From Bacilli bacterium (GTDB taxonomy: Bacteria > Bacillota_I > Bacilli_A > RFN20 > CAG-826): a DNA stretch of 64,000 bases. Made by a program: the position numbers and the translations under genes. Positions 28,098-45,995 of the stretch are shown one piece after another. Location of the stretch: contig DAOSDC010000004.1 in the NCBI GenBank assembly GCA_035361955.1, forward strand, positions 14,916 through 78,915, given 5' to 3'. The notes below the pieces were generated by a model. It had not been told where the DNA came from. It saw only the letters and a program-made list of their open reading frames with translations, and did no database searches. Every line of letters begins with the position of its first letter. The first letter of the stretch is position 1.

Positions 28098-30245
28098 TTA
28101 TTCCCATGACAGCCGAGGCGTGTCACCAGAAAAATCCCAGATTTGTTGGTTGAATGCAGACAGTGTCAATAATCCCGCCGCACTGATTCCGGTAATGCCA
28201 TCGCCACGTCCGCTTGAAGGATTACCGATGCGGTCGCGGGAGGAGATTGTCGAGTTATAAACGCACGATGTATAAAGCGTGGCCACAGTGCCTCCAGGGG
28301 TGACGCCGACAAACGAGCCGGCATAAATGTTGGTGCCCGCAGAAACGACAACAAGATTTTGGGCAATCGAGAAATTGACTTTGTTGTTATATCCTTCCAT
28401 CCGTCCGATGAAGCCTCCGATGTGGACAATGTTTGTTGCTGTCGCGGTGACTGGACCCATCGAATAGGAATTGGAAATTGTCCCGTTACCCATGTAGCCG
28501 ACAAACCCACCAACATAGTTTGGTCCGGTGACCGTAATTTCGGCTTTGCTTTCGGTCACTTCCATGTAGTTGTCGAGGAGTTTACCAATGAACCCACCAG
28601 TCGGGCTTTGTTCGCCACCGACGACAACGATTGAACCTAACGCCGCCGATTGATGAATACGTGATGTGGCACCCGATTGACGGACCAGACCAATTAGACC
28701 ACCTGAAATGGCGTGAGTTGCTTGGACATCGCCATCATATATGACACGCGTGAGGTCAGAGTCGATTGTCGAGCCGATAGCACCGCCGACTTTCGCGGTT
28801 CCGTTACCAGAAACGACAGTCACATCGACATCAATGGTAACCATCTCGATTGTGGAATTAATCAGGGTTCCCGCTAATGCGCCAACCTCAGCTTCTAGCT
28901 GCGTGGTCGCCACATCGATGGCTCCAACTAGTTGGACATTACGGATAATCGCTCCATCGACTTTCTTAAAGAAACCAATCGCGGATAAGGAGTCTGATGT
29001 TTCATCAATATCGATGTTAGAAATAGTATGACCGGCACCGTCAAAGTATCCTTCAAAATCAATCGGTGTCCATGCTGAAGTAAGTGCAATGTCATTGGCT
29101 AGCGTATACGCGCCGCCTTTAACTATCGCTTTAAGCTCCGTTTCGTTAGTAATTGCTAGTGCGCCTAAATATACTTTTTCACTTAATGGCGATGCCATGT
29201 GAATACTTGAAGTGGCTCTAACTTGGAGATAACTACCGGTTTGCGATAGTAGTGTTGGACTAAGCGTATAACTAGTGGTCGTGATGCTTTCAATGAGCCC
29301 GCCATCAACGTAAATGTCATAACCTGTCGCCCCCATCACAGCGTCAAACTCCAGCAAATCGCCTGTTAATCGCAGATTAGTCGGTTGGGCTAGCGTAATT
29401 GGAGCGATGCTTAACGTGACTTCACCCCAAGCGGAATCGACATATTGATCCCCAGTAGCGATGGCCTTAACCTTGATGTTAACGGAACCGACGAAGTCGA
29501 TACCAATCGTCACCGAGTTGGTCGATGATGTGAATTCGCTCATATCATTTACTAACACGACATATGAAGTGGCATTGGTAACAGCATTCCAAGAAACAAC
29601 TCCTTCGTAATATGTGATACTAGTTGGCGTCGCCAGTGGAACTTTGATATATAGAATGTCCGAGAATGGGCTGGAAACGATATAGCCATCGGTTCTTCCA
29701 GTGGCCAAAACTTGAACCGAGGATGGCGAAGTAACGGTAATCGGATATGATGTTTCCAGCGTGAAATTTTCAACATCGTTAATTTTTACGATATAACCAG
29801 TCGCTCCTAATACCGCATCCCATAAAACGGTGCTACCATCTTGCCTTACATTAGCGGGAGCCGCTAGCTCAAGAATGGCGACGACATTAAGTGGCGCAGA
29901 ATAAGCGGTCGTTTCTTCGCCTCGAGTAGCCCGCACTTCGATTGATAAGGGACCAAAGTACGTATGATCTAAATCAAAATAATTGGTTGATGTTTCGTGT
30001 TCGTCAGTGCCATTCAAGCGCACGACATAACCAGTCGCACCAGCAACTTCATCCCAACCGATGCGTCGGCTGGTTAAGGCGACGTTAGCAGGAACTGTCA
30101 GCTCTTGGACAATTGATGAAGAGACTTCACTCGACGATGTACTCGATGTTGAGACACTGCTAGTTGAGGATGACGAAGAACTCTCACCGCATGCATATAG
30201 TAGCGGTACGGCAATTAGTAGCGATAAAAGCAATTTGTGTTTCAT
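28098..30245 (-). CDS. Surface lipoprotein with a Ser-rich linker, about four FN3-like repeats and a C-terminal GLUG-motif beta-helical domain
   Basis: Lipobox LLYACG. Repeated ...W(D/N)AV.GATGY(V/I)V... FN3-like units. Repeated GG(L/F)(I/V)G GLUG motifs (GGLIGL, GGFIGK, VGGFVG, IGGFIG, AGSFVG). Confidence 0.6.
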   Translation of the reverse strand: MKHKLLLSLLIAVPLLYACGESSSSSSTSSVSTSSTSSSEVSSSIVQELTVPANVALTSRRIGWDEVAGATGYVVRLNGTDEHETSTNYFDLDHTYFGPLSIEVRATRGEETTAYSAPLNVVAILELAAPANVRQDGSTVLWDAVLGATGYIVKINDVENFTLETSYPITVTSPSSVQVLATGRTDGYIVSSPFSDILYIKVPLATPTSITYYEGVVSWNAVTNATSYVVLVNDMSEFTSSTNSVTIGIDFVGSVNIKVKAIATGDQYVDSAWGEVTLSIAPITLAQPTNLRLTGDLLEFDAVMGATGYDIYVDGGLIESITTTSYTLSPTLLSQTGSYLQVRATSSIHMASPLSEKVYLGALAITNETELKAIVKGGAYTLANDIALTSAWTPIDFEGYFDGAGHTISNIDIDETSDSLSAIGFFKKVDGAIIRNVQLVGAIDVATTQLEAEVGALAGTLINSTIEMVTIDVDVTVVSGNGTAKVGGAIGSTIDSDLTRVIYDGDVQATHAISGGLIGLVRQSGATSRIHQSAALGSIVVVGGEQSPTGGFIGKLLDNYMEVTESKAEITVTGPNYVGGFVGYMGNGTISNSYSMGPVTATATNIVHIGGFIGRMEGYNNKVNFSIAQNLVVVSAGTNIYAGSFVGVTPGGTVATLYTSCVYNSTISSRDRIGNPSSGRGDGITGISAAGLLTLSAFNQQIWDFSGDTPRLSWE

Positions 30246-30255
30246 AAGTTACTCC

Positions 30256-32754
30256 TTACCGCGGCTCGCTGGTGACTGTTGGTGTCACGGACAAGTAATG
30301 CGAGGGGTTATTTATTAGTTCTAATGTATCGGCATCGACAATATAAGAGACGACATAATAATCAAGTGGCAAGCCCGGGATAAGTGAGATATCGACAGAC
30401 ACGCTGACAGGGATGCCACGGCTATATTTACCACCTTCAAGATGTGAGAAATGCGGGACAACATAAGGTTGCATCGCACTTTCGTATAATGTGCCATCAC
30501 CGCTATAAACATCGATCTTGTAAATGATGTCGCGTGGTGATTTATCACCGTTATAAGATTTGTGAAGCGCCATCGTCGATGCTGTAATCACGTCTTCGAC
30601 TTTTTGATAAGTGGAAGCACCAGCACCAAAATCGGCTCGCGCCATAGCCAGCCCCACATACATATCACCCGCGCCATAATAGAAGTACCATTCCCCGTCA
30701 TGACGAATCATCGTGTCGGCGAACATACATTTGTCAAACAAGCCATAATCGATTTTGTTGGTATCGGTCGGATACATCGTCGGCTCATCAAGGTCGAGAC
30801 GGATATTTGTCAGTTCAAACGGATTGGCCTTGGTCGTTTTAAGCACACCCAAGGCATAGAACCAACCATTGGCGTTTGGTTGTTGGTTTTGAATGGCGGG
30901 ATCACTTAAGACGCCGCCACCATACATTAGATAAATGTCTTGATCGTCTGGCCCATAAATATTGGTAATAGCCATGCACGATTCGTTGCCTTTGGTCAAA
31001 TCTTCGATATCGTTATTACCATAGTTGCCGGTATCGATATCGATGAAATCTTGCTGAGCAATTGATAACACGTCATTCGTGAATCCAATGCGCGTATAGC
31101 CTCCGTCTTTCATGTAAATCATGTAGACTTCACCCCGTTTACCAGGACGCGGATCCGGAATCTTGACGGCGTTACCCTCAGTATCGGTCACAAATGTGCC
31201 GGATTTATGGGCTTGCCCATAACTGGGTGCTAAACGACCCGTTTTATGGAACGTTACGAAATCGTGAGTGTAAATAATACCTTCCCTAGTAATCGAGTTA
31301 TCATACATCGTATAGGTGATGTAATAGGTTGTCAGGCCACCGCGATTAGGATCGTTTTCGATTCTAAACATGCGCGGGTCTTCTAGACCGCCGCCAGCTT
31401 CATCGTTGGTCGTCGGCCAAGCAATTGGGTTATTCTCACCGCGGACGAAATTCTTACCATCGTATGAATAAGCATAAGATAGTGTCGACATATGACCAAG
31501 CTCATAGCGACTGCCAAAATAAGTATCAAAACGATCGGGCAGTTCCGAGCGGTAAATCATGTGGAACATCTCGCGGTCATAGTCGTAGATGACGGCCGGA
31601 TTATAAGTGGCGTAAGATTCAAAGCCGGGGATGTTGCCGCTTGCAATGCTGGCCATGTTGGTGACCACGCCATTGGCATCGATTGGATAACCATGTGGTG
31701 CGAGCACAAGTCCCCCATCGTAAAGAGTGATATTACTCATGGCGACCCAAGCCGGACTGTTTCTAGAAAACTCCATTTCCCGTCCTAATTTGGCGGCATG
31801 GATGTCACTCCATTTGAATAGTTCAAACGAATAAATCGAGAATGTCGATTGCCAAGGATAACGACCCGTCTTCTTGGTCGCTTCGCTGGTTTCGCGTTGA
31901 ATCAATTCCAGTTTGATGTAGCGCGTGGTTTTGTCGCTATTAAGGCGCAGTGTATCAACTTCGCCAAGCCCAGCTTCGGAACCGCTGATGTAGTACCAAT
32001 CTTCATCGTTTCGCTGTGGAGTGGTGACATCAGTTGCTGGATGACCATAAATCTTGAAGATACGCGCGAACGAGACTTCCCAACGAATCTTGATTAAATC
32101 AAATGTCATTGGTGTATTTAAATCAAATAGTGCGTACTGATTATCGGCAACGCTTGAAGCCCATCGGGTATTGGCGAGATTATCAAGCATGGCCGAACCA
32201 GGGAGCGTCGAGGCGTTTTCGTTACTCGAAACATGGACGACGGTCCCGCTTGTGGCTAAGCTTTTCGGACCATAAACTTCAAAACTATAAAACGAATAAC
32301 CATAATCAAGTTTACGGGTGACACCTTGGAATTTAACAAACTGTGTTTCGATCCACTCGGGAAACACAATGATGTCTTTCTCACTCGTTGTTTTGGAAAT
32401 ATCGCCAACGGTTGTCCAATCGATGGCGTTAAGCGACATCTGAAGTCGATACTGCGAGGCATAGGCCGCTTCCCAGTCGATGACGACTTTGCCAACCTTT
32501 TCAACCGAACCTAAATCGACATAGAAATAGGCGCTATTTTGATTGACGGCCGCATAGCGCGTGTTGGGGTTGGCGTCGACGGCATTGGTGTTGACGTTAC
32601 TATCGGTGTGATCACTACTGACAACGCGACGCTTATAAGCCAAATCAACGCCATATTCGCGTTCAGCTGCCGTCGTGCTTGTCATTTGTGGAGGTATCGT
32701 GACTAATAGCGCAAAGACGCTTAATAGACCGAACCATTTCATTGTTTGTTTCAT
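30256..32754 (-). CDS. Secreted protein with two F5/8 type C (discoidin/CBM32-like) domains and a C-terminal GH130-like five-bladed beta-propeller (beta-mannoside hydrolase/phosphorylase family)
   Basis: Start at MKQTMKW (RBS GGAGGG); the track ORF starts earlier at 32829. Discoidin pattern AVDANPNTRYAA...YFYVDLG. GH130 motifs YNPAVIYDYD, GGGLEDPRMF, YYITYTMYD and C-terminal YFYYGAGDMYVG. Confidence 0.7.
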   Translation of the reverse strand: MKQTMKWFGLLSVFALLVTIPPQMTSTTAAEREYGVDLAYKRRVVSSDHTDSNVNTNAVDANPNTRYAAVNQNSAYFYVDLGSVEKVGKVVIDWEAAYASQYRLQMSLNAIDWTTVGDISKTTSEKDIIVFPEWIETQFVKFQGVTRKLDYGYSFYSFEVYGPKSLATSGTVVHVSSNENASTLPGSAMLDNLANTRWASSVADNQYALFDLNTPMTFDLIKIRWEVSFARIFKIYGHPATDVTTPQRNDEDWYYISGSEAGLGEVDTLRLNSDKTTRYIKLELIQRETSEATKKTGRYPWQSTFSIYSFELFKWSDIHAAKLGREMEFSRNSPAWVAMSNITLYDGGLVLAPHGYPIDANGVVTNMASIASGNIPGFESYATYNPAVIYDYDREMFHMIYRSELPDRFDTYFGSRYELGHMSTLSYAYSYDGKNFVRGENNPIAWPTTNDEAGGGLEDPRMFRIENDPNRGGLTTYYITYTMYDNSITREGIIYTHDFVTFHKTGRLAPSYGQAHKSGTFVTDTEGNAVKIPDPRPGKRGEVYMIYMKDGGYTRIGFTNDVLSIAQQDFIDIDTGNYGNNDIEDLTKGNESCMAITNIYGPDDQDIYLMYGGGVLSDPAIQNQQPNANGWFYALGVLKTTKANPFELTNIRLDLDEPTMYPTDTNKIDYGLFDKCMFADTMIRHDGEWYFYYGAGDMYVGLAMARADFGAGASTYQKVEDVITASTMALHKSYNGDKSPRDIIYKIDVYSGDGTLYESAMQPYVVPHFSHLEGGKYSRGIPVSVSVDISLIPGLPLDYYVVSYIVDADTLELINNPSHYLSVTPTVTSEPR

Positions 32755-32756
32755 AA

Positions 32757-35306
32757 TCAGCCCTCCGTCAATAAATTGATATTTAGTATTTTTGTGATGT
32801 ACAGATGTGCATATAGCGCGCATGGCCACGTAAACCAGTCGCGGCTATATTCATTCGGATTATTGGCATTGAATGCTTCATGCATTACGTAGGTGCCACC
32901 TGTCGTATCGGTCATATATTCAATCATTAGTTCTATTTCGCTTTGGTTATTAGTCGTCAGCCCTTGCATGGCAATAGCCATGTGCCATGGAACCGGCGTG
33001 CCTGGATGGGGATTGGTGCCACCAATGCCATCGTGAGGATCACCAATGCCTTTGGCGTATGTTCCTTCGTAGTAATACGGATTATCGAAACTGAGGATGA
33101 AATCACGTGTGTTTTGATAAATCGGATCTTCGATGGGTGCATAGCCTAGCCAAGGAATCGCTAGAAGACTGGGAATATTCGCGGCATCCATCAGTAGTTT
33201 GCCACTGCTGGAATTGGCGTCGCTTGTAAAGCCGTTAACCTCGAAAGCGTAAATTTTGCCATAGGTTGGGTGTTGATACACGCCATATGTTTCGATTGCT
33301 TGACGCACTTGGCTAGCCATCGTGGACGCACGCAAGGCAAGCGCGCTTTCCTTTTCCATTTCAGTTAGCATACTTGCCATCTTTTCCAGCGTAGCGACGG
33401 CGAACATATTGCCGGGTATGAAGAATTTGTAGTAAGTCACATCATCGCTTGGCCGATAACCACTCCAAATAAGGCCACTAGCGGTATTCACTTCATGCGG
33501 ACCGGCGTCACGATCGCTTTGATTAGTAATCCGATAATTGTCATCACTATGATTGCGTTCGTTTTGTAACGTATCGAGTACTTTTGTCAGCGTCATCATG
33601 AAGAAGGTATCAAAGATTGAGGTGTCTTCAGTGATGCGGTAATACTCATATGCGAGCCATAGCGGATAAATCAATGAATCGATTTCGAATTTGAGTTCGA
33701 ACACGGAACCACCGGGATTAAATGCATTGGCGTATTGATTGCGCCGAATCAGTTCGAACTGCATCCGTAGCAATCCTTTAACCATTAATCGCACATCATC
33801 ATCGATGTTCATGAACTGTAAATACGGAAGCACCTGGGCGCTTGAATCTCGTAGCCACATGGCATCAATGTCGCCGGTGATAATAAATGTGTTGCCGTTA
33901 GCATAGTGTTGGACGACACTGGGCCAATTGCCTTTGATGTTGGAGATGCCATCGATCGTCGCAAAGAAAGTTTTTCTAACCGTAGTTCTGGTTGTCGCAT
34001 CCATAATTGAGTCGATATGTGGATTAATGTATGAACGCATCGCCGTGTAGCTTGGATTTGTCACAATCGGATCAAATAAGTTATAAGCGATTTCATCGTT
34101 GATGTTAGGCCAACTGGCGTGATAGGTATTGATGGCTTCAATTGTCAATAAGCCCCAATCGCCGCGCGAATTGTCGACGAATTCAAGATATAGGCAGTTA
34201 TTGCGATATTCGCTTAAATCAATGTGATACAAGTGGGTGTTTTCTTCGTCAGCGTCCCTCCAGCGGTCACTATAAGTGCGATAAATTTCTTCGTTAGTGC
34301 CCACGACTTTGACCGACATGTATGTGAGTTGCCGATTTTTGGTGGCTCCTAATCTGAATGACATCAAATTGGTACCCGCGACTTTGAAAGCACTTGAACG
34401 CAAAACCCCGATTTTAGATTCGTCGGGCCGATTGCTTAAGCGGTTGCTAGAAGAAATATGGCTGGCCCGAAACACCCCATCCTCACCGATAACGGTCCAT
34501 CCGACGAGCGTCTTCGTGGCGAAGTCACCATTATACAAGGCATTAGGAGTACCCGCAAAATCGGTGAATAGCGGCATGATATTTGGCGCTTGGACATAAC
34601 CGACAAGCGCTGGAATCGAAGGATGATAAGTCACGATGTCATCAAGCGTGACATAACCGTGATTGGCAATCGATTGGTCAACGACTTTGATATAGGCCGT
34701 TATTCCTAAATGCGCGGATAAATTAACGAAATAGTTATTCATGTTTTCGACCCGGTAATCACTCGTTCCGCTGGCGGGTTGGTTAAACATTGAATTACCG
34801 ATGCGATAGATTTCTTTTTCGGTTTGGGCGTTGATGATGGAGATGTATGTCAGCGCCTGCATGTAGGCCGCACCCATGCGCATAGTGATATAACCGCTCC
34901 CTCCAATCATAAACGACGAGGATTGCATGATGCCTTCGCTAGTTTGACTCACACCTTTATAGAAGTACGTGCCTTGTTTGTTATATGGCACTGTGGCGTT
35001 TACCATAGTATCGCTACTGACTCCTTGGGAAGAGAAAGCCGCGCCTGATATAATCGTCCAACCAGATAGATCACCAGTTTCGAAGTCACCGTTTTCGATT
35101 GAATAAATCGTTTCATCGATGGCACTTGAAGATGAGCTTGATGAAGGAGTGGAACTTGATGAACTGCTAGAAATCTCACTCGTGCTCGAAGTAGTCGAAC
35201 TCGGGGTTTCGCTTATAGAGGACAGTGAAGATCCGCACGCAGATAAAGACATTGCTCCCAAAAGCAAGGCGAGGAAACCAAGGCGGGATGTAGAAGGTGT
35301 ATGCAT
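32757..35306 (-). CDS. Surface lipoprotein with a Ser-rich linker and two tandem jelly-roll modules (family member 4) fused to a GH125 (metal-independent exo-alpha-1,6-mannosidase, DUF1237) (alpha/alpha)6 catalytic domain
   Basis: RBS AAAGGAG. Lipobox LSACG. ENGDFETGDLSGW... and a second module ...VLRSSAFKV. The catalytic part carries ITGDIDAMWLRDSS, which I recall as the hallmark of GH125/PF06824. Confidence 0.65.
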   Translation of the reverse strand: MHTPSTSRLGFLALLLGAMSLSACGSSLSSISETPSSTTSSTSEISSSSSSSTPSSSSSSSAIDETIYSIENGDFETGDLSGWTIISGAAFSSQGVSSDTMVNATVPYNKQGTYFYKGVSQTSEGIMQSSSFMIGGSGYITMRMGAAYMQALTYISIINAQTEKEIYRIGNSMFNQPASGTSDYRVENMNNYFVNLSAHLGITAYIKVVDQSIANHGYVTLDDIVTYHPSIPALVGYVQAPNIMPLFTDFAGTPNALYNGDFATKTLVGWTVIGEDGVFRASHISSSNRLSNRPDESKIGVLRSSAFKVAGTNLMSFRLGATKNRQLTYMSVKVVGTNEEIYRTYSDRWRDADEENTHLYHIDLSEYRNNCLYLEFVDNSRGDWGLLTIEAINTYHASWPNINDEIAYNLFDPIVTNPSYTAMRSYINPHIDSIMDATTRTTVRKTFFATIDGISNIKGNWPSVVQHYANGNTFIITGDIDAMWLRDSSAQVLPYLQFMNIDDDVRLMVKGLLRMQFELIRRNQYANAFNPGGSVFELKFEIDSLIYPLWLAYEYYRITEDTSIFDTFFMMTLTKVLDTLQNERNHSDDNYRITNQSDRDAGPHEVNTASGLIWSGYRPSDDVTYYKFFIPGNMFAVATLEKMASMLTEMEKESALALRASTMASQVRQAIETYGVYQHPTYGKIYAFEVNGFTSDANSSSGKLLMDAANIPSLLAIPWLGYAPIEDPIYQNTRDFILSFDNPYYYEGTYAKGIGDPHDGIGGTNPHPGTPVPWHMAIAMQGLTTNNQSEIELMIEYMTDTTGGTYVMHEAFNANNPNEYSRDWFTWPCALYAHLYITKILNINLLTEG

Positions 35307-35324: not shown

Positions 35325-36836
35325 TTAGTAATTCAAATTAATAGCCATCGTCGCATAGGTGAAAAACGGACGAGTGGCGTAATAGGTAACAATGTTATCG
35401 ATGAAAATCGTATCCCAACTGCCGGTGGCGTTATCGACGATTTCAACATAAAACTTTTGGCCCTGATAATCCGATAAATCAATGAAGTATTGAATCATTG
35501 TTGTACCAGATGACCGATTATTGGCAAAGCGAATCACTTCGCGATTAGTGGCAAAGTGTTTAATGGAAACGAACGTGTCTTTGTCATAACGTGAGCCTTG
35601 CGCGGCCCCGATTTGAAGCGAGGCGATTCCTGAGCCATCGACGCGGAATAGCGACGAGCGAATCAATCCACGGGCGCTATCACCAGTAGCATTACTACGA
35701 AGCGACCCGGAGGTCACGATAAACGTATCGCTATTTCCATCTGGTTTTTGCCAACCAGGCAGATCTGATATCGTCCAGTTTGTCAAATTGGAAGTAAAGT
35801 CACCATTGGCAACTTGATTCGGGGCATAGTCAACCAAATAGATTGGCTTGATGTCAACGGCAATCACACCATCTTCAGGCGCTGTTTCATAATATGTCTC
35901 AAACGCGTCAGCGGTCAGGAAATCCCAATCTCGTGATCCGAAATCAGATAGCTCAATATATAGTTCGTTTCCTAAATACGATGATAAATCGGCCCGGTAT
36001 TTAACAAGGTTTTCACCAAAGTATTGACCCTCGACAACTTGTGAAACATCAAACATTTGATTACCAAATCGTTTAATTTCCAAATCATCACTGGCGCGTC
36101 GAATCGATACATATGACAAATCGGCGGTCTTGCCCGCGCCTAACAAAAACGAGATGTGACCACTACCCCCAAGGGTGAATGTTGATGAACGAAGTTGGCC
36201 GAGTCGTTCTTCAAACGCCGCTTTGGATACAGAAGTTGATCGACCCAACACATAGGAACCTTCACCATCATATGGAAATGTTGCGCTTGGGATTGTTTCA
36301 TTGGCGACGATGGCGGTATCTCGAAACGCTTGAATCGTCGTTTCGCCTTTGAAAATCGTGTGGACCGACCAACCGAATAAATCGCCGGTTTCAAATCCGC
36401 GATTGACGATGCGATGGGCATTGTGACGGTCGATGATTGTCATTGGTAATATCGCCCGACCCAATGTCGTATAAAGCGACAACTCATATGTTCCCGGAAG
36501 TAGCGTGACTAAATAATGTCTCGCAATCGAAATCGAAGTTGGACCAATTTCGTAGTCGCCAGAAGCGATATTGTGTCCTTCGATATGGGAAATCGTGCCA
36601 ATCTCCAGGGCGTCGTATTCATAGCTCAAATCGTTTAATAAATCAAAATCGAATTCGGTAACGAGCGGTGTAATCGGAAGCAGTGTTTCAGATGAGATGG
36701 ATGAGAAAATGTTTGTCGAGGATTCACTGCTTGAACCGGTTGACAAAGATGATTGGTCGCTCATTGAAGAGACGCATCCAGTCATGATTGTCATCAATGC
36801 GATTAATAGCGTAATACTCGACTTCGACACCTTCAT
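35325..36836 (-). CDS. Surface lipoprotein with an Ig-like domain and two tandem jelly-roll modules only (family member 5). No catalytic domain.
   Basis: Lipobox IMTGCV. The Ig-like region is homologous to that of 20695..23457. NRGFETGDLFGW...LRSSTFTLGGSGHISFLLGAG and a second module VANGDFTSNLTNW...LIRSSLFRV. Confidence 0.7.
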   Translation of the reverse strand: MKVSKSSITLLIALMTIMTGCVSSMSDQSSLSTGSSSESSTNIFSSISSETLLPITPLVTEFDFDLLNDLSYEYDALEIGTISHIEGHNIASGDYEIGPTSISIARHYLVTLLPGTYELSLYTTLGRAILPMTIIDRHNAHRIVNRGFETGDLFGWSVHTIFKGETTIQAFRDTAIVANETIPSATFPYDGEGSYVLGRSTSVSKAAFEERLGQLRSSTFTLGGSGHISFLLGAGKTADLSYVSIRRASDDLEIKRFGNQMFDVSQVVEGQYFGENLVKYRADLSSYLGNELYIELSDFGSRDWDFLTADAFETYYETAPEDGVIAVDIKPIYLVDYAPNQVANGDFTSNLTNWTISDLPGWQKPDGNSDTFIVTSGSLRSNATGDSARGLIRSSLFRVDGSGIASLQIGAAQGSRYDKDTFVSIKHFATNREVIRFANNRSSGTTMIQYFIDLSDYQGQKFYVEIVDNATGSWDTIFIDNIVTYYATRPFFTYATMAINLNY

Positions 36837-37762
36837 GTGTTCAGCTCCTCGTATTCGACAAACGGATCTTCAATGATGGCATAGTGGGCCTCGGCATCAG
36901 ATAGACCGGTATACAAAGTGGCCGTGCCGTCGTGATTACGGACCAACCCCCCGACAAATACGACATCGATTAAATCGAGTCTTTTAGCGGCACCTTGTTC
37001 AAAATCCGATCGTTCGCAAATGATTTTCATCGGGGTACGTTTGCGTGAAATCGGGTCAAGCGCGAAGGTCATCCCATAGTAGTGGCGAATGTCGCCTTGA
37101 CTCATGCGCGCGACATGGCCGAGCACGCCTATCATGCCATTTTTCAGGACGTGGACTTGATTGGCGCCACCCCAGCATTCATCGCCGAATAAATCATCAA
37201 GCAGCGGGGCTTTTTGAATGAATTCTGTCGTGATGTGATATAGCGCATCGGTAGAGTCAAAACCAATCTTGCCCCATTTGGCATCGCCACCTTGGGGACG
37301 GCTCATCATGTAGTAATGATTGCCTTTAGCAACTCTGACATCTTTCATTTTCAGTGGCGCTTCAATGATGATTCGTAAATCGCGGAACGACGTTCCTTGA
37401 TAAAACACCGTGCGCCAAGAAGTGATTTTCCCAGTCGTGTCAGGATGAATTTGTGTACCACCGACAAGCAGTTTCCCATCGATGATTTCCACGAACGGAT
37501 CTTGCAGGTTTTCGATGACTTCCCGCGTGGCTTCATAAATATCGGTGCCGATTCGCTTAAAGAATCGGACTGTTGATATTTCGCTATCGCGCTTTTCGAC
37601 GCGGCCGGCGATATAGCGTTCACCTTCAAAAACAAATTCCGAGGAAATGTTGTACACGTCAAAGCCTCGAACACCCAAAAAATGGATTTTTTTCGTAGCT
37701 TTGATGTGGGTGTTTGCCCGGTGGGCTGTTAATAAGTTATCTAAATTGCATTTGTTATTCAT
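36833..37762 (-). CDS. Cytoplasmic GH130-related/DUF1861-like beta-propeller protein (putative mannoside phosphorylase/hydrolase)
   Basis: No signal peptide. DPFVEIIDGKL and C-terminal LYTGLSDAEAHYAII resemble the GH130 YYGAAD ending. Confidence 0.45.
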   Translation of the reverse strand: MNNKCNLDNLLTAHRANTHIKATKKIHFLGVRGFDVYNISSEFVFEGERYIAGRVEKRDSEISTVRFFKRIGTDIYEATREVIENLQDPFVEIIDGKLLVGGTQIHPDTTGKITSWRTVFYQGTSFRDLRIIIEAPLKMKDVRVAKGNHYYMMSRPQGGDAKWGKIGFDSTDALYHITTEFIQKAPLLDDLFGDECWGGANQVHVLKNGMIGVLGHVARMSQGDIRHYYGMTFALDPISRKRTPMKIICERSDFEQGAAKRLDLIDVVFVGGLVRNHDGTATLYTGLSDAEAHYAIIEDPFVEYEELNT

Positions 37763-37766
37763 AACG

Positions 37767-38666
37767 TTATCCTTTAATGCCGACGCCGGCGACGCTTTGG
37801 AGAAATTTCTTTTGCATGAAGCTGAATAATAAGACGACGGGTATTAAGGCAATCAAACTGGCAACCGAGACATAGTTCCATGGCACTAGATACGAACTTG
37901 AACCGCTTTGGAATAAGTTCTCGAATATCGAGATGCTGTTAGCCATGACCCAATTACTCTTATCGGAAATGTATAATGCCGGACCATATAAATCGTTATA
38001 TGTACCCACGAAATATAGCAATACGACTGTCACGATTACGGGAACATTCAGGGGCAGTACAATCTTGAAGAAGATGCGCATTTCGCCATACCCATCCATA
38101 CGTGCCGCTTCAATTAGTGGTTTAGGCACCGTTTGGAAGAATTGACGGAACATAAAAATCACGAATACGTCGGTGGCAAACCACGAGCCAATCCATAGGG
38201 GGATATACGCTACTTCTTTAAGACCAGCGTTGACCATGAACTCGTAAATCGGGATGCCTAATATTTCACCCGGAATCATCATCGTCGAAAGCAGGATGAA
38301 AAAGATGATGTTTTTGCCAGGAAATTTGAACATCGCAAACGCATAAGCTGCCATCGAACAAGTAAGAACAGTCCCCAATGTCTTCATTGCAAAGATGAAC
38401 ATCGTGTTCAAAAACATGCGTAGCACATTGTAATCGGGATGAGCGAGCACGAAGCGGATGTTTTCGAATAGCGCGAACGAGCGGGGGAACATCGTCGCCA
38501 TCGTCGAGGCTTCGTTTAAATCTTTCATAGCCGTGATCATTAAGTAGTACAGCGGTAATAGCGCGACAATCGCAAATAATATGAGCAACACATAAGTGAT
38601 GACTTGTTGCGTTTTGCGCGACATGCTTGTTTTACTATGCCGAGTTTGTTTCAATCGCATTTCCAT
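37767..38666 (-). CDS. CUT1 carbohydrate ABC transporter permease (MalG/UgpE-like)
   Basis: 6 TM segments. EAA loop EAARMDGYGEMRIFFKIVLPL. Confidence 0.8.
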   Translation of the reverse strand: MEMRLKQTRHSKTSMSRKTQQVITYVLLILFAIVALLPLYYLMITAMKDLNEASTMATMFPRSFALFENIRFVLAHPDYNVLRMFLNTMFIFAMKTLGTVLTCSMAAYAFAMFKFPGKNIIFFILLSTMMIPGEILGIPIYEFMVNAGLKEVAYIPLWIGSWFATDVFVIFMFRQFFQTVPKPLIEAARMDGYGEMRIFFKIVLPLNVPVIVTVVLLYFVGTYNDLYGPALYISDKSNWVMANSISIFENLFQSGSSSYLVPWNYVSVASLIALIPVVLLFSFMQKKFLQSVAGVGIKG

Positions 38667-38674
38667 GCTGTCAC

Positions 38675-39616
38675 CTAACTGATCGTGATGTCTTTCTGCA
38701 CATAAAATTTCGACATTAGGAAGTGAATGCCGGTTAAGGCGAGGATTATCAGGAAGAAAATATAAGCCATCGCCGCGGCATAGCCGAGTCTAAATGGCAT
38801 ATTAAACGCTGTCATAAACATATAAATGGGGAATAACAGCGTCGAATTTGATGGCCAACCTTGACCATTACCCATCACAAACGCCAGTGAGAATGCCCGC
38901 AATCCGTCAATCGTAATCAGGATGACGTTGAAAAATAGCATTGGAGAAATAAGCGGCAATGTGATTTTGAAAAATTGTTGGGTTTTCGAGGCGCCTTCGA
39001 TCTCCGCCACCTCGTATAGTTCACTCGGTATCCCTTGAAGCGCGGCTAGAAACACCAGCATCTTGACACCGAATCCAAACGAACTTATGACAATCATCGT
39101 CATCAGCGCCGAATCAGGCGAAATGTACCATAATGGGGGATTGTTGATGTCAATCAAATTAAGCGCGGTCAACAAATTGTTTATCAAGCCTGTCGTTGGA
39201 TTAAACAAGTTTTTATAGACGGCGCCCACGGCGAAACTAGGAATGATAAACGGCAAGAAATAAATCGTGCGGAACACGCCGATGAATTTAACGCGCGAGT
39301 TTAATAGCATCGCTAAAACCAATGATGTCACAAGCACTAAGGCTCCGCTTATAAGAGCGAAAACAAGCGATTGCTGAATCGATTTGGCAAACAACGGATC
39401 GCTTTTCAGCGCATATAGATAATTGGCCCAGCCCACATAGTTGGGATCGGTGTCGAATATCGTTTTATCAGTAAGACTAAGTACGAATGTGCGAATGATT
39501 GGATATAGATAAAATAAGCCAAATCCTAAAATGGCAATGCCACCAAACATCAAAAAATATTTGTAATTGCGATGGAAGTTTTTCTTGAATGAAAGATGCA
39601 TTGCCTTGCTAGCCAT
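38675..39616 (-). CDS. CUT1 carbohydrate ABC transporter permease (MalF/UgpA-like)
   Basis: EAA loop EVAEIEGASKTQQFFKITLPL. The start is uncertain (39616 or 39601; the track ORF extends to 39688 into the upstream gene). Confidence 0.75.
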   Translation of the reverse strand: MASKAMHLSFKKNFHRNYKYFLMFGGIAILGFGLFYLYPIIRTFVLSLTDKTIFDTDPNYVGWANYLYALKSDPLFAKSIQQSLVFALISGALVLVTSLVLAMLLNSRVKFIGVFRTIYFLPFIIPSFAVGAVYKNLFNPTTGLINNLLTALNLIDINNPPLWYISPDSALMTMIVISSFGFGVKMLVFLAALQGIPSELYEVAEIEGASKTQQFFKITLPLISPMLFFNVILITIDGLRAFSLAFVMGNGQGWPSNSTLLFPIYMFMTAFNMPFRLGYAAAMAYIFFLIILALTGIHFLMSKFYVQKDITIS

Positions 39617-39617
39617 A

Positions 39618-40940
39618 TTAACTACCGTACAGTGTCGCGTAATATTGATCGACTTGCGTTTTAATGCGATTGAGCACAATCGTGACATCGGTTTCCGAAC
39701 CGCGCCCGGTATACATCAGTTTATATAGTTCGGCCATCACGATTTCACGCATGACTTTGGAAAAATCGCGTTCGCGCGGTAACGTAACGGCTTCCTCGAT
39801 TGCATCAAACAGAGCATCAGTATTAATGTCTTTTTGTTGTTCTTCGGGCAACGCTTCAATCAAGTCTTGCATATTCTTGAGTGCCCCAACCTTACCGAAC
39901 TCATACATTTTGGTTGCCCCTTCGGATCCGGTCCACATTTTCAAAAACGAAAACGCTTCGCTAACTTGTTTGCTACGTACGGAGATACCAAACGCATCGG
40001 CGGATATTTCCCCACCTTTAGCGCTAGGTCGATCAACAGGCTTTGGCAACACTTGAATATCCCAGTCGATCCCCAAGGCGTCATAGCTAAACCAATCGCC
40101 CATGTGACCGCCGAATATCATCGCCACATTACCACCCAAAAAAGAGTATGAGGAGGCGCTTTCGATTGCGTCCGGCGCAAATTTTGTACCAACGCCACCC
40201 ATTGATTTGTCTCTGAAAAACTGTGTGGCGGCAATTCCTTCGGGCGAGTTGATGGCGCACACCCGATTATTCGAATCGGGAGCGTAGAATGTGCCACCCA
40301 TTTGTTGCACGTACACAAGCCATTCGCCCCACCAGTTAAGTTGGGCTTCAGCGCCAAAGGAAGTATATGTTACGTTGGGGGTCTCACCTGTGAATTTAGA
40401 TAAAACGACACCCGCGGCCTGATAATCATCGTATGTCCAATCCGCTTGCGGATAGACGCTTTCGCTTTGGGTTAAGCCCAATACATCGCGAAGATCGTCA
40501 GCGGAGGCATCGAATAGTGCTTTGTTGTAGTAAAGGAGCGAAGTATTCAGTGAAGTCGGTAGCGCGTAAACTTTTCCATCAATCGTTAACGCATCCATTA
40601 ACGAATCGATGTAGTTGTCAGTATCAATTTCCTCATCCTCATTGATAAGCGTTGTCAAATCAAGTAGCGAAGGTGTCATTGACGTGACGACGACCGTGCT
40701 CGTCTTGATGATGTCGGGTTCATCTTTGGTACCGATTAATTTGCCGATATCTTGACCATATGTCGCTGAAACAGCGATACCGGTTCGTTCGGTAAAGATG
40801 GCAAATAATTCGTCATAACGGCCTTCATCTTCGATATCTAGGGCAATGCGTAATGTTTTGTCGCCATTATTATCACAGGCGGCAAGGACGGGCAGTGTCA
40901 GTATTGATATCAAACTTAATAAAAGTAGCGGCCGTTTCAT
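39618..40940 (-). CDS. Lipoprotein, family-1 extracellular solute-binding protein (oligosaccharide SBP)
   Basis: Lipobox LAACDN. About 440 aa with SBP_bac_1-like composition. It lies adjacent to the two permeases. Confidence 0.7.
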   Translation of the reverse strand: MKRPLLLLSLISILTLPVLAACDNNGDKTLRIALDIEDEGRYDELFAIFTERTGIAVSATYGQDIGKLIGTKDEPDIIKTSTVVVTSMTPSLLDLTTLINEDEEIDTDNYIDSLMDALTIDGKVYALPTSLNTSLLYYNKALFDASADDLRDVLGLTQSESVYPQADWTYDDYQAAGVVLSKFTGETPNVTYTSFGAEAQLNWWGEWLVYVQQMGGTFYAPDSNNRVCAINSPEGIAATQFFRDKSMGGVGTKFAPDAIESASSYSFLGGNVAMIFGGHMGDWFSYDALGIDWDIQVLPKPVDRPSAKGGEISADAFGISVRSKQVSEAFSFLKMWTGSEGATKMYEFGKVGALKNMQDLIEALPEEQQKDINTDALFDAIEEAVTLPRERDFSKVMREIVMAELYKLMYTGRGSETDVTIVLNRIKTQVDQYYATLYGS

Positions 40941-41965
40941 GATACGTTCTCCATATTTTTGAATAGGTCATCGTAAGTCATGTGGCACACAGCGATGTTT
41001 TGGTCACATACGCCATAGTAGATATGGACCATGTCATCATCGTTAGTGACACCACACGTGAAAATGACATTGGGGACAAACCCTTCTTTTTCATAAGGTT
41101 CCGTCGGTTCAATTAAAGGTTGTTTTGATTTTTTGATAACTTTGCTTGGGTCGTCTTTATCAACGAGCAGGGCGCAAAGATGATAACGGTGGTCTTTGTC
41201 GGCGCTATGGTAGATGACGACCCAGCCTTCTTTTGTTAAAAATGGCACGGCGCCAGCGCCCACGCGCGCTGAACATTGATATTCGATGCGAGCCTTCTTC
41301 AGCGCCTCGTGCTCACCCCAGTGGAGCAAGTTCGTGCTTTTAGCCAGCCAAATATCGAGTTTTCCAAAATCGCTCGTCGAAGGACGGTGATAAGCATAGT
41401 ATTGATTATTGATTAATTGCGGAAAAATAACGCAGTCTTTGTTGTCAAAAGGAAAGATGTTGCCAAGCCGATCAAACTTCTTGAAATCATCGGTGACCAT
41501 CAACCCAACGTTGATGCCAAAGCTACTGACTGCGGTATAAGTAATGTAATAACGACCATTGATATACGTGATGCGTGGATCTTCAATTCCATATTCTTCA
41601 TAAACGCTCTCGGGGAAAAGAGGTTGCTCATCAAACACAAAATGATGGCCATCTTCACTACGACCAATCCGGAAGTGCGAGATTGAAGTCAAATAACTTT
41701 CTTCGTGGTTATGAATGACGCGGGCATCGGAAAAATCGTAGTTGGGGTCGCTCATGGCTATTTGGATGAATTGGAATTTCTTGTGGCGCCAGATGGGCAC
41801 ATAAACATAAACGCTGTCGCTTTCCTTCATCGTTTCGGCGACACGGGCAATCATAATCGTCGTTGAGCCGACCTTGATTGTCGCGGGGTTAAACACGCCA
41901 AGCACACGCAGTTCGGGGCTCGTTGGGGCAATGTCTTCGGTTTTAATGATTAAATGCTTTTCCAT
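40937..41965 (-). CDS. Cytoplasmic GH130 beta-mannoside phosphorylase (beta-1,4-mannosylglucose/mannooligosaccharide or Man-beta-1,4-GlcNAc phosphorylase type)
   Basis: No signal peptide. Canonical GH130 motifs GVFNPATI, GIEDPRITYINGRYYITYTAVS, DNKDCVIFP and HIYYGVCDQNIAV. It overlaps the SBP gene by 4 nt (ATGA). Confidence 0.85.
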   Translation of the reverse strand: MEKHLIIKTEDIAPTSPELRVLGVFNPATIKVGSTTIMIARVAETMKESDSVYVYVPIWRHKKFQFIQIAMSDPNYDFSDARVIHNHEESYLTSISHFRIGRSEDGHHFVFDEQPLFPESVYEEYGIEDPRITYINGRYYITYTAVSSFGINVGLMVTDDFKKFDRLGNIFPFDNKDCVIFPQLINNQYYAYHRPSTSDFGKLDIWLAKSTNLLHWGEHEALKKARIEYQCSARVGAGAVPFLTKEGWVVIYHSADKDHRYHLCALLVDKDDPSKVIKKSKQPLIEPTEPYEKEGFVPNVIFTCGVTNDDDMVHIYYGVCDQNIAVCHMTYDDLFKNMENVS

Positions 41966-43910: not shown

Positions 43911-45995
43911 TTAACGGCACACCACCCTTTTAGTCACGTAGTCATAACGGCTTTGTGCCGTCAATATTTCAATTCGCATCGTATAATCGGTATCTGGTAG
44001 CAATGCTTTGTTATACCGGTAAGTCGCTAATGGTTCGCCATCGTAGGCGAGGATGTCACCGAAATATACTTTCATGTTGACGATTTCATCATCCAATGGT
44101 GCCGACATGGCAATATTGATGTCGGATGATGAAGTAAGCTCTTGTCTAGTTGTGATATTCGTCAAATTGACCGCGGCCTGTTTTCTGGCGATTAACTCGT
44201 CGGCGATGACCACTCCATTATCGGCCATGCTTGGAACCGAATTGGCGGGCAGTTGCCGTACCACCAGCGATTGCTTGGTCGGAACTCTTAAATGCACGGA
44301 GCCTGATACATTACGGGCGAGGATCGTCTGTGATAAAGCGTCGAATAGGTCATATGCATATTCGGGACCTTCATAGTTAACGATATATGCCTGGTTATAC
44401 GGGTTATAAAACAAATAACCCGGCATTTGGGATGGCCCGAAACTATCGGTGGCGTTCAAATCAATGCGCAAAATTCCATTCACATTCGTTTTTTGGGCCA
44501 CAGCCCCGAGGCCCCCGATAAAAGCCGAGCTATACAAACTGAGATCTGAAGGTTGTCCAAACATCGTCGTGGCATCGCCCATGGCATAACCAGTCATTGA
44601 ATTCCAGCTTTGACGGAATCCTTCATAAATAAGCGTGCCTTTTGTATCAAATGGTAAATAACTGTTCATCGATTGGTGTGACAAACTATGCGTTTGCGGG
44701 AAAAAGTAGCGGGCATTGCTGACGAGATTGAGCATGTATTTGCCAATCGCGTTTGCGTAACGGGGGTCGTATTTGACCATGGGTGCTAACGTGGTGGCTA
44801 AATGAAGCGAATTCATCGCAAATGCATAATCGCCGGCTTGCCCGACGAGCCCATGGACCGGATAATCGCCAAACGAGCCGCTCATGACAGCCCAACCCGG
44901 CCGGAACGAGGAATCGCCATCAAATAGAAAATCAATGAATTTACCGATATCGTAGGAGGTGCCATGATGCGCGTTTAATATCGCGGCGATGTATGGTGCG
45001 TAATCGGTTAGAGCTTCATAATTCGGATTCTTTTGATAGGTTTGTAAATAATCGAGTACTTCCTTCGTACCGTCAAGATATTTTTCATCACCCGTTATTT
45101 TATAAGCCGAGTAGAATAACGCCGCGAGTCCACCATTGGGAGGCTCGATGTGACCTCCGGTAACCGTCGGAGATTCAAGCACGACGTTATATCCGACGAA
45201 TTCGTAGTTCGGCACCCCGCTTTTAACGAAATAAGGTAGCGCTTCGAGCCATTCATTCGCCCCGTTAAGCACGATTTCTTGCATGAAGGGGGTGTCAGGA
45301 TAAAGCTCATACAAGCGCGCGAATATTATTTGAGGAAACAGATCGTACCAGAAGCTTTGTCCTTGAACGCCATAGTTATGAACTAATTTCGACCCGGTGT
45401 CATAGCTTGAAAAAGTCATTTCCACGAAATCATAAGTAGTATCACCAAATTGTTGGTTTTGTTTGTCGATGCCGGCATAACTAGCGCCGAGCACTGAAGA
45501 AATCGTGGTCATTGCTTCGCTACCGGAACTGACGACGCGATTATCACCCACGTATGTCGGAAGCCCAAACGTGCGTTTTAGATAACCGGTTTCCAGTGGG
45601 TTATAAACTGGAGGCTGCCGTGGCTGGTCGAGCCAATATCCAATTGGGTTCCATGATGAAGGATCGCTTGAGATGTATGAAGGGATTCTGACAGTCGGAT
45701 CATTGGCAAAACCGAAAATGACCCGGTCGAGCTCTCGAGCCGCTGCTCCATAATCGTAATAGCGGTAATTAGTTGGAATATCTGGGAAAGAATTGATTTT
45801 TGAAATCGTTTTTTCAACACCGATATCGGACGCTAAAAAGGTGGGTTGCTCACTCGATTCACCGCTTGATTCGTTTGAAGTAATTGGCGTTGTAGACGAA
45901 GAAAAATCGCTAACTGAAAGCGATGAAGTTGCCGATTCACACGCTGATAGTAGCAACACCAGAATACCGAGCCCAGTTTTAAGATGTCGTTTTAT
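43911..45995 (-). CDS. Surface lipoprotein of unrecognised family (paralog 2 of 23494..26382). Putative novel glycan-active enzyme. It probably initiates at a non-ATG codon (ATA 45995 or ATT 45998).
   Basis: The track ORF begins with GTG-encoded 'M'LLLSAC at 45959, which is too short for a signal peptide. The in-frame upstream sequence after the TGA at 46008-46010 encodes G-G-E-I-I-KRHLKTGLGILVLLLSAC, a canonical lipoprotein signal, and is preceded by the SD GAGGTGG. The central region is homologous to the 23494 protein. Confidence 0.6.
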   Translation of the reverse strand: MKRHLKTGLGILVLLLSACESATSSLSVSDFSSSTTPITSNESSGESSEQPTFLASDIGVEKTISKINSFPDIPTNYRYYDYGAAARELDRVIFGFANDPTVRIPSYISSDPSSWNPIGYWLDQPRQPPVYNPLETGYLKRTFGLPTYVGDNRVVSSGSEAMTTISSVLGASYAGIDKQNQQFGDTTYDFVEMTFSSYDTGSKLVHNYGVQGQSFWYDLFPQIIFARLYELYPDTPFMQEIVLNGANEWLEALPYFVKSGVPNYEFVGYNVVLESPTVTGGHIEPPNGGLAALFYSAYKITGDEKYLDGTKEVLDYLQTYQKNPNYEALTDYAPYIAAILNAHHGTSYDIGKFIDFLFDGDSSFRPGWAVMSGSFGDYPVHGLVGQAGDYAFAMNSLHLATTLAPMVKYDPRYANAIGKYMLNLVSNARYFFPQTHSLSHQSMNSYLPFDTKGTLIYEGFRQSWNSMTGYAMGDATTMFGQPSDLSLYSSAFIGGLGAVAQKTNVNGILRIDLNATDSFGPSQMPGYLFYNPYNQAYIVNYEGPEYAYDLFDALSQTILARNVSGSVHLRVPTKQSLVVRQLPANSVPSMADNGVVIADELIARKQAAVNLTNITTRQELTSSSDINIAMSAPLDDEIVNMKVYFGDILAYDGEPLATYRYNKALLPDTDYTMRIEILTAQSRYDYVTKRVVCR

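Follow-up and report, generated by a model that had tools for sequence, protein, structure and literature searches.

We analyzed a 64,000-nucleotide stretch of a Bacilli bacterium genome assembly (GCA_035361955.1, contig DAOSDC010000004.1, positions 14,916 to 78,915 of the forward strand), denoted here as the window, and concentrated on one gene within it, hereafter the target gene, which encodes a GH130-like protein of 832 residues with a predicted export signal (Table 1). The target gene is the tenth of 13 minus-strand open reading frames (ORFs) that run from 23494 to 45959 with gaps of −4 to +32 nt, an arrangement we treat as an operon. Identical gene order is found on independent metagenome contigs, as is a protein identical to the target (P0001). 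At neither end of the operon did promoter or terminator scans outperform shuffled controls, and the transcript is not defined by them.

The longest minus-strand ORF at this position spans 30256..32829 and begins with GTG. We place the start instead at the ATG at 32754, which yields the 832-residue protein with the N-terminus MKQTMKW. This ATG is likely the true start, based on the spacing of the GGAGGG element, the position of the TGA that ends the GH125 gene (32757..32759, 2 nt 5′ of the ATG) and the aligned homologs with an intact N-terminus, which start at the equivalent methionine and are likewise Lys-rich there; the ribosome-binding site, the overlap and the homolog starts speak against the longer GTG start, which we rejected. 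The spacing between the GH125 stop and the target ATG suggests translational coupling of the two genes. The N-terminus contains two lysines, a 16-residue hydrophobic core (Kyte-Doolittle value 2.57) and a predicted cleavage site between T-A-A and E, with no lipobox cysteine, and a hydropathy test found a comparable hydrophobic N-terminus in 78/82 full-length family members. We infer that the target protein is exported. It is the sole exported product of the operon with neither a lipobox cysteine nor a C-terminal transmembrane anchor, the other exported products being membrane-tethered.

Signal peptide aside, the target protein has four parts: two F5/8-type-C domains, a GH130-like propeller and a C-terminal beta-sandwich. 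The Pfam F5_F8_type_C profile matches in two stretches (E = 3.8e-24, 85.7 bits vs a cut-off of 28.2). The first domain most resembles the chitosan-binding CBM32 domains of a Paenibacillus glucanase (family profile vs 4ZY9/4ZZ5, E ~4e-30), and the chitosan-binding DD1/DD2 domains of this glucanase/chitosanase (4ZY9, 4ZZ5, 2RVA) share the discoidin beta-sandwich fold with the target domains. Both domains would be expected to act as carbohydrate-binding modules (CBMs) of the CBM32-like type. A CBM was found on 0/6308 GH130 sequences in a 2020 survey (PMC7660257). The combination of GH130 and discoidin domains is nevertheless not unique to the target, as the metagenomic protein P0182, GH130_3-like, bears an F5/8C domain at its C-terminus; our literature search for a GH130-CBM32 fusion returned inventories of carbohydrate-active enzymes only and no study of such a fusion.

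The Pfam Glyco_hydro_130 profile (PF04041; E = 1.2e-12, 47.9 bits vs a gathering cut-off of 26) covers residues 380-508 only. The remainder of the propeller was found by a phmmer search of the PDB (residues 377-706), by hhalign (probability 99.95%, E = 3.5e-37) and in an AlphaFold2 (AF2) model of residues 329-832 built with 71 homologs as input (predicted local distance difference test, pLDDT, 89.8; predicted template modeling score, pTM, 0.89), in which the propeller is followed by the beta-sandwich. His768, Tyr777 and Gly780 of the sandwich are invariant, and the model packs it confidently against the propeller. The sandwich is absent from other GH130 proteins; the closest relatives of the target family, a single-domain sister clade, stop near residue 708.

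Table 1. Features of the target gene and its surroundings, in window coordinates.
Feature	Position	Strand	Basis
Target gene, predicted exported GH130-like protein, 832 residues	30256..32754	−	ORF list and translation; stop codon 30256..30258
GGAGGG, Shine-Dalgarno-like	32761..32766	−	6 nt 5′ of ATG (direct sequence reading)
Predicted Sec/SPI signal peptide, residues 1-30 (MKQTMK, then WFGLLSVFALLVTIPP, then QMTSTTAA; cleavage before ER)	32665..32754	−	Hydropathy and charge script
F5/8 type C (discoidin, CBM32-like) domain 1, residues ~33-163	32266..32658	−	Pfam PF00754/PF22633
F5/8 type C domain 2, residues ~170-318, approximate boundaries	31801..32247	−	Second PF00754 stretch; conserved block in family alignment A1
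GH130-like five-bladed beta-propeller, residues 329-708	30631..31770	−	AF2, Foldseek vs PDB, MAFFT, hhalign
C-terminal beta-sandwich, residues 709-832	30259..30630	−	AF2 secondary structure; invariant columns
Lipoprotein with four FnIII-like repeats and GLUG-motif beta-helix head	28098..30245	−	Pfam Glug; AF2 pLDDT 85
Lipoprotein GH125 with N-terminal extension of ~430 residues, adjoins target upstream	32757..35306	−	PF06824 E = 1.7e-112; lipobox LSAC
DUF1861 protein, GT108-family homolog	36833..37762	−	PF08950 E = 1.9e-93, 313 bits; PDB 2B4W/6Q4X E ~1e-43
ABC sugar importer: permeases (37767..38666, 38675..39616) and lipoprotein solute-binding protein (39618..40940)	37767..40940	−	Pfam of identical contig; lipobox LAAC
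Predicted cytoplasmic GH130 phosphorylase, Lin0857/Uhgb_MS-like	40937..41965	−	Pfam E = 7.6e-51; PDB 5B0P E = 1.9e-89
LacI-family regulator, directly upstream of operon	46171..47178	−	NCBIfam LacI/RbsR-type matches
PGM/PMM-type phosphomannomutase	15221..16924	+	Pfam
Type I phosphomannose isomerase	16921..17871	+	Pfam
ROK sugar kinase	17868..18758	+	Pfam

A Foldseek search of the PDB with the AF2 model returned GH130 structures for all of the first 32 matches, with target-normalized TM-scores of 0.67-0.78 for the top ~16. The GH130 hydrolase group ranked highest (3TAW, 3QC2, 5A7V [BT3780], 3R67 and 4ONZ; E = 5.5e-19 to 2.8e-17), followed by beta-1,2-mannoside phosphorylases (7FIP/9GPH/9FJ8) and then other GH130 phosphorylases, and sequence identity to the top structures was 19-23%. 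Against solved GH130 structures in general, identity is about 21%. Among 1.84 billion cluster representatives we found two full-length representatives of the target family, the next relatives in the library lying at E ~1e-21 to 1e-23 and ~37% identity. Comparison of clades by local hhalign scores between profiles gave 352 for the target family against the sister clade, 216 against BT3780-type hydrolases and 220 against phosphorylases; the sister clade itself scored 489 against the hydrolases and 404 against the phosphorylases. These scores place the target family on a long branch joined to the non-phosphorylase GH130s. The 'GH130 xylanase' AH2, considered as a possible relative, was discarded as irrelevant to the target, being 79% identical to BfMGP/3WAS.

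Members of the sister clade (P0126, P0128, P0129, P0130, P0132, P0164 and P0190; hhalign E = 5.5e-49, 34% identity) are recognized by the motif 'E-x-C-x-A-x-T-D'. Like the target they carry an equivalent of Glu591, lack the phosphorylase HRP loop, mostly have Asp or Glu at position 550 and in many cases have signal peptides, whereas they are without the discoidin domains, the C-terminal sandwich and the DPRPG insertion described below, and their Pfam GH130 matches are full-length. We found no paper on this clade, although no dedicated search was made.

The active site of BT3780 comprises N74, R89, E141, D142, K199, E227, E268, Y302, F344 and D363 (PMC4599007). GH130 hydrolases carry carboxylates in place of the basic phosphate ligands, with biochemical proof for BT3780 and BACOVA_03624 (Cuskin et al. 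2015, PMC4599007). According to a later survey, phosphorylases bind phosphate through Arg and His and are made without a signal peptide; in hydrolases the E227 position holds Asp or Glu, the Arg and His are missing, and signal peptides are present (Li et al. 2020, PMC7660257); the Glu/Lys pair E141/K199 denotes beta-1,2 specificity (PMC4599007, PMC7660257). To map these positions we used MAFFT L-INS-i with bridging sequences and two hhalign profile alignments, with P0161, whose numbering is exactly the same, as the reference for BT3780 numbering.

The target residues N385, R402, K517, Y633, F678 and D697 correspond to BT3780 N74, R89, K199, Y302, F344 and D363, and E458/D459 of the EDPR motif correspond to E141/D142, with D459 (UhgbMP D104) as the predicted proton donor. 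At the position of E227 (in 'YFMYWGE'), which is that of the Arg in the phosphorylase 'HRP' loop, the target has D550 (in 'YMIYMKD'), and the HRP loop is deleted. Y611 or G612 falls at the phosphorylase His ('IYHG/S'), and both MAFFT and hhalign place no basic residue at the third basic phosphorylase position ('R/K-V-G'). The listed propeller residues, which further include Tyr484, the DPRPG insertion at 534-538, Lys549, Glu584 and Glu591, are invariant in 71/71 sequences down to 43% identity, except for Glu584 (68/71) and Tyr611 (70/71). The insertion is part of an invariant eight-residue element, D534-P-R536-P-G-K-x-G, immediately N-terminal to the strand that bears the putative base.

The second carboxylate of BT3780, E268, lies in a TECGPP motif that is replaced by NESCMAITN in the target. 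MAFFT places Glu591 two residues before E268, and an offset of two along a beta-strand generally puts two side chains on the same face; Glu591 is also the glutamate of the sister-clade motif. A pairwise phmmer alignment to 5A7V gave a different result, with Thr559 at E227 and Asn598 at E268 and both bases lost. We rejected this register, which is shifted by one hairpin, because MAFFT with bridging sequences, the two hhalign runs and the predicted strand-turn-strand agree on pairing 'YMIYMKD' with 'YFMYWGE'. As read from these alignments, the phosphate site is gone, a hydrolase-type carboxylate is present and the beta-1,2 signature is intact.

These results bear on a preliminary description of the window, which had called the target an exported GH130-like protein with two F5/8-C domains and proposed that it is more likely a hydrolytic GH130 of the beta-1,2- or beta-1,4-mannosidase type, a proposal to be refuted by retention of all phosphate-binding residues together with solely phosphorolytic activity. 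The two Pfam discoidin stretches, the GH130 match and the hydropathy-based signal peptide agree with the first part. As to the second, the phosphate-binding Arg, Lys and His residues are not retained in any of the three alignments, and the invariant Asp550 at the phosphorylase Arg, together with Tyr611/Gly612 at the His, supports a hydrolase in silico.

An extracellular phosphorylase, supplied with phosphate from the environment and binding it at a rebuilt site (with, for instance, Arg536, Lys539 or Lys549), would be in keeping with the family-specific, invariant basic residues Arg536 and Lys549, which are known from sequence alone, and with a profile score as close to phosphorylases as to hydrolases. 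Such an enzyme would have to work with both canonical ligands (HRP Arg and YHG His) missing, the HRP loop deleted and an invariant Asp at the Arg position. Moreover, a signal peptide occurs on no characterized glycoside phosphorylase (PMC7660257), and CBMs are unexpected on enzymes for imported oligosaccharides. We regard extracellular phosphorolysis as most improbable.

We consider the target protein to be probably an exported, inverting hydrolase of the GH130 fold and not a phosphorylase, most plausibly a beta-1,2-mannosidase acting on extracellular mannan or mannosylated glycoconjugates. This reading follows from the loss of the phosphate ligands, the invariance of the subsites and of the Glu/Lys pair, and the identity of the nearest structures and of the best NCBIfam model, all of which are beta-1,2-mannosidases. 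The same window encodes homologs of beta-1,2-mannoside phosphorylases, an ABC importer, a phosphomannomutase, a phosphomannose isomerase and a ROK kinase, a context that favors this assignment. In the mechanism we propose, the Sec signal peptide would direct export and the two N-terminal CBM32-like domains would hold the enzyme on its glycan. Asp459 would serve as proton donor, with a mannose −1 subsite formed by Asn385, Tyr633, Phe678 and Asp697 and a beta-1,2-type +1 subsite formed by Arg402, Glu458 and Lys517. The nucleophile would be water instead of phosphate, activated by Asp550 and probably by Glu591 or Glu584. Mannose or beta-1,2-manno-oligosaccharides released in this way could enter through the ABC importer of the operon, to be phosphorolyzed by the cytoplasmic Lin0857-like GH130 and the GT108 homolog to mannose 1-phosphate (Man-1-P), which the mutase and isomerase would convert to fructose 6-phosphate (Fru-6-P).

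Several observations weigh against this assignment. Identity to characterized hydrolases is only ~21-23%, and the best NCBIfam model, the BT3780 beta-1,2-mannosidase equivalog NF058598, scores 56.7 bits against a cut-off of 550, so that the target is, as judged by sequence, a distant relative of BT3780 and not an equivalog. By profile score the target family is equidistant from hydrolases (216) and phosphorylases (220). The base position holds Asp550 and not Glu, the counterpart of E268 differs by method (Glu591 by MAFFT, two residues before E268; Glu584 by hhalign, with low confidence), and the invariant DPRPG insertion with its Arg536 is family-specific and known here from sequence, not from a position in the active site. 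BT3780 is itself a poor catalyst with an unclear acid, and residue logic in GH130 is to that extent imperfect. Finally, if the target released nothing but mannose, its activity alone would not explain why two cytoplasmic phosphorylases for beta-1,2-oligomannosides are needed.

The last point would be met by a GH130-fold hydrolase of another mode or specificity, such as an endo-beta-1,2-mannanase or an enzyme that cleaves a different linkage or a different beta-linked sugar, yielding oligosaccharides for the importer and the phosphorylases. The cytoplasmic GH130 and GT108 proteins need imported beta-1,2-oligomers, and no other exported enzyme active on beta-mannan is recognizable in the operon by Pfam or NCBIfam. 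In addition, the two CBM-like domains suggest a polymeric substrate, the family sits on a long branch (hhalign 216 to the hydrolases vs 489 for the sister clade), and the DPRPG insertion and the fused beta-sandwich with His768 and Tyr777 are absent from exo-mannosidases. On the other hand, the −1 and +1 subsites match those of the exo-mannosidases throughout, down to the Lys that determines beta-1,2 specificity, and the endo activity could be supplied by two exported paralogs of unknown fold at the ends of the operon (43911..45959 and 23494..26382) or by several unknown modules of the operon. An endo-acting or otherwise distinct hydrolase is a possibility to be taken seriously, if clearly the less probable one.

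The favored beta-1,2-mannosidase assignment is best judged against the GH130_3 beta-1,2-mannosidases BT3780 (5A7V) and BACOVA_03624 (3QC2) and Dyadobacter fermentans ACT94389.1, which we take to be Dfer_3176. The target shares with this group the five-bladed propeller, the signal peptide, the EDPR Asp and the Asn/Tyr/Phe/Asp set of the −1 subsite, as well as the Glu beside the proton-donor Asp, the Lys at K199, the loss of the phosphate Arg and His, the carboxylate at E227 and a genomic context of alpha/beta-mannan degradation. Unlike GH130_3, the target has an Asp at the base position, NESCMAITN for TECGPP and the eight-residue DPRPGKxG insertion, its propeller is flanked by two discoidin domains on the N-terminal side and by the fused beta-sandwich on the C-terminal side, and its hosts are Gram-positive-type or wall-less metagenome-assembled genomes (MAGs), whereas GH130_3 is found in polysaccharide utilization loci of Bacteroidota. 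The beta-1,2-mannoside phosphorylases (Lin0857, 5B0P; Teth514_1788/1789, 9FJ8/7FIP; Uhgb_MS) have the same fold, proton donor and Glu/Lys pair as the target but keep the HRP Arg and YHG His, have no signal peptide and consist of a single domain.

GH130 is a textbook example of a fold that switches between phosphorolysis and hydrolysis, and to our knowledge its hydrolytic side is represented only by the Bacteroidota/Dyadobacter beta-1,2-mannosidase group. The target lineage would be a second, deeply divergent hydrolytic solution, with Asp at the base position, a changed motif around the second carboxylate, one additional loop and the sandwich fused to the propeller. The rule that a signal peptide combined with lost phosphate ligands marks a hydrolase is already published (PMC4599007, PMC7660257), and applying it here is sound and not new. 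What is new is the divergent lineage, its active-site variant, the four-module architecture, the restriction to uncultured anaerobes and an apparently obligate pairing with a GLUG/FnIII lipoprotein.

The preliminary description had proposed two signal-less GH130 paralogs beside the target, both phosphorolytic, so that three paralogs in one operon would be partitioned between locations. Both proteins lie where described and have no hydrophobic N-terminus by the hydropathy script, and the protein encoded at 40937..41965 is indeed a GH130; the other, at 36833..37762, is a DUF1861/GT108 protein and not a GH130. Their predicted phosphorolytic role is in line with matches of both to characterized beta-1,2-mannoside phosphorylases. 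The partition, with hydrolysis outside the cell and phosphorolysis within it, is likewise real at the level of sequence signals. All three genes lie on the minus strand in the 13-ORF run.

The cytoplasmic GH130 matches the NCBIfam beta-1,2-mannobiose phosphorylase model (BtaManbiosPhlase) with 386 bits. It consists of a single module, and in the alignment it retains the Glu/Lys pair and both phosphate ligands (Arg of HRP, His of YHS) along with the long lid loop typical of Lin0857/Uhgb_MS proteins. The DUF1861 protein is homologous to Leishmania mannogen MTPs (E ~1e-43). DUF1861 corresponds to CAZy family GT108, which has a GH130-like propeller but is separate from GH130 (PMC12814180, PMC10913872), and AsGT, a member from bacteria, acts on beta-1,2-mannosides both as phosphorylase and as transferase (PMC10913872, PMC12814180). 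On the plus strand of the window, the mutase, isomerase and kinase (Table 1) complete, as judged by Pfam assignment, a route from Man-1-P or mannose through mannose 6-phosphate to Fru-6-P. The GH125 lipoprotein belongs to a family of exo-alpha-1,6-mannosidases. LacI homologs, like the regulator upstream of this operon, also stand beside related loci.

Many of the exported modules encoded around the target are unknown. The operon begins with 43911..45959 and ends with 23494..26382 (both minus strand), two genes for exported paralogs (29% identity over ~510 residues, E = 1e-50), one with a lipobox and the other with a C-terminal transmembrane anchor. Neither has a convincing Pfam match, and neither 43911..45959 nor 35325..36836 has a PDB sequence match at E ≤ 1; the paralogs are candidate novel glycanases and could supply endo activity. 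Among the operon proteins scanned, Pfam reported no sortase, SLH or cell-wall-binding domain, no motif search having been made. The membrane tethering of the exported operon products fits an anchoring strategy in wall-less-type hosts, as suggested by the MAG labels.

A separate module of ~200 residues, usually present twice per protein, occurs in five exported proteins of the window: 18902..20548 (+), 20695..23457 (+, N-terminal half), 26415..28067 (−), 35325..36836 (−) and the N-terminal ~430 residues of the GH125 lipoprotein at 32757..35306 (−). It is recognized by the motifs NGGFETGDLxGW, ERMGxLRSSxFxLGGSGWISFKLGGG and ARFGN, in this order. The module has no Pfam match at E ≤ 0.01 and no sequence relative in the PDB, with a faint match to TIGR04362 ('choice-of-anchor C'); it probably binds carbohydrate or has a catalytic role and, as such, would be undescribed. 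Giant ORFs matching it (up to ~6 kb, about 1,100-2,000 residues) are found between the GT108 and GH125 genes in related loci. One of the five proteins, the exported lipoprotein at 20695..23457 (+), whose gene is convergent with the operon end, combines NGGFETGD modules with a purple-acid-phosphatase-like metallophosphoesterase (Metallophos E = 4e-13, Pur_ac_phosph_N). In the phosphomannan of Candida, beta-1,2-oligomannosides are attached through phosphodiester bridges, and this putative phosphodiesterase could release such oligomannosides.

When each GTDB species was represented by a single genome, a scan identified target-family loci (n = 30) exclusively in MAGs, labeled as Bacilli, Izemoplasmatales, Acholeplasmatales, 'Tenericutes', Erysipelotrichia or rumen/caecum Clostridia, with no cultured isolate among the 30. 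Wherever DNA downstream of the target gene is available, the next gene, in the same orientation, encodes a homolog of the GLUG lipoprotein (28098..30245), and this includes both copies in the two-copy Clostridia loci L005 and L020. GH125 lies directly upstream of the target gene in most related loci, and the Bacilli-type loci also carry GT108, the importer and the GH130 phosphorylase upstream. In the GLUG lipoprotein Cys19 is invariant. A Foldseek search with its model matched fibronectin arrays and 3N6Z (a 'putative IgA1 protease' domain), so that the protein can be described as an FnIII stalk with a head like 3N6Z, but no further function emerged, and a homolog search returned only nine close relatives, as Ser-rich low-complexity words swamped the matches. 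The conserved gene pairing suggests that the GLUG lipoprotein and the target form an obligate functional pair, and, because the pairing is strict and the target is without a membrane anchor, the target may be tethered or helped by its partner.

This pairing also enters into the question of whether the target is an enzyme at all. A degenerate propeller joined to discoidin domains could instead capture mannan as a non-catalytic surface lectin or scaffold, perhaps held by the GLUG lipoprotein, and the strict coupling to the FnIII-stalk/GLUG gene, the lack of a membrane anchor on this one exported operon protein and the partial Pfam GH130 match would all suit such a role. The catalytic set, comprising the proton-donor Asp, the base-position carboxylate and the −1 subsite, is nevertheless invariant across the 71 sequences, which argues for retained catalysis, since such residues are usually lost in binding-only derivatives. 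A purely binding function is thus very unlikely.

A more far-reaching proposal is that the target and the GLUG/FnIII lipoprotein form a surface-tethered complex in wall-less Izemoplasmatales-like bacteria. Within it the GH130-like module, with its DPRPG insertion, fused sandwich and tandem CBMs, would attack beta-1,2-mannan in polymeric form, which could make the target the first endo-beta-1,2-mannanase. Its substrate might include the phosphodiester-linked beta-1,2-oligomannosides of fungal phosphomannan, and the locus would then be an undescribed Gram-positive-type system for beta-1,2-mannan utilization built largely of unknown modules (the NGGFETGD module, the 43911/23494 paralogs and the exported metallophosphoesterase). 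As a whole we hold this proposal to be speculative and rather unlikely.

The locus of these uncultured anaerobes combines beta-1,2-mannoside enzymes, some exported and others cytoplasmic, with an importer and with the metabolism of Man-1-P. This makes the natural source and fate of environmental beta-1,2-mannans testable, and the target is a new candidate enzyme for the analysis of Candida- or Leishmania-type beta-1,2-mannans. The gain in understanding is incremental, as the principle is established, and would be larger if the enzyme proved to be endo-acting, of novel specificity or part of a tethered complex.

In the Clostridia loci L004/L032 and L005/L020 a divergent copy of the target family (43-47% identity) lies beside SASA-type and CE2/GDSL esterases and a PGM/PMM gene, and this neighborhood hints that the natural substrate may be acetylated. 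Outside the window, the metagenomic proteins P0150 and P0188 (~1,200 residues) carry a distant GH130 propeller C-terminal to DUF4062-NACHT/AAA STAND-type NTPases, an unexpected fusion in which the propeller may serve as a sensor domain.

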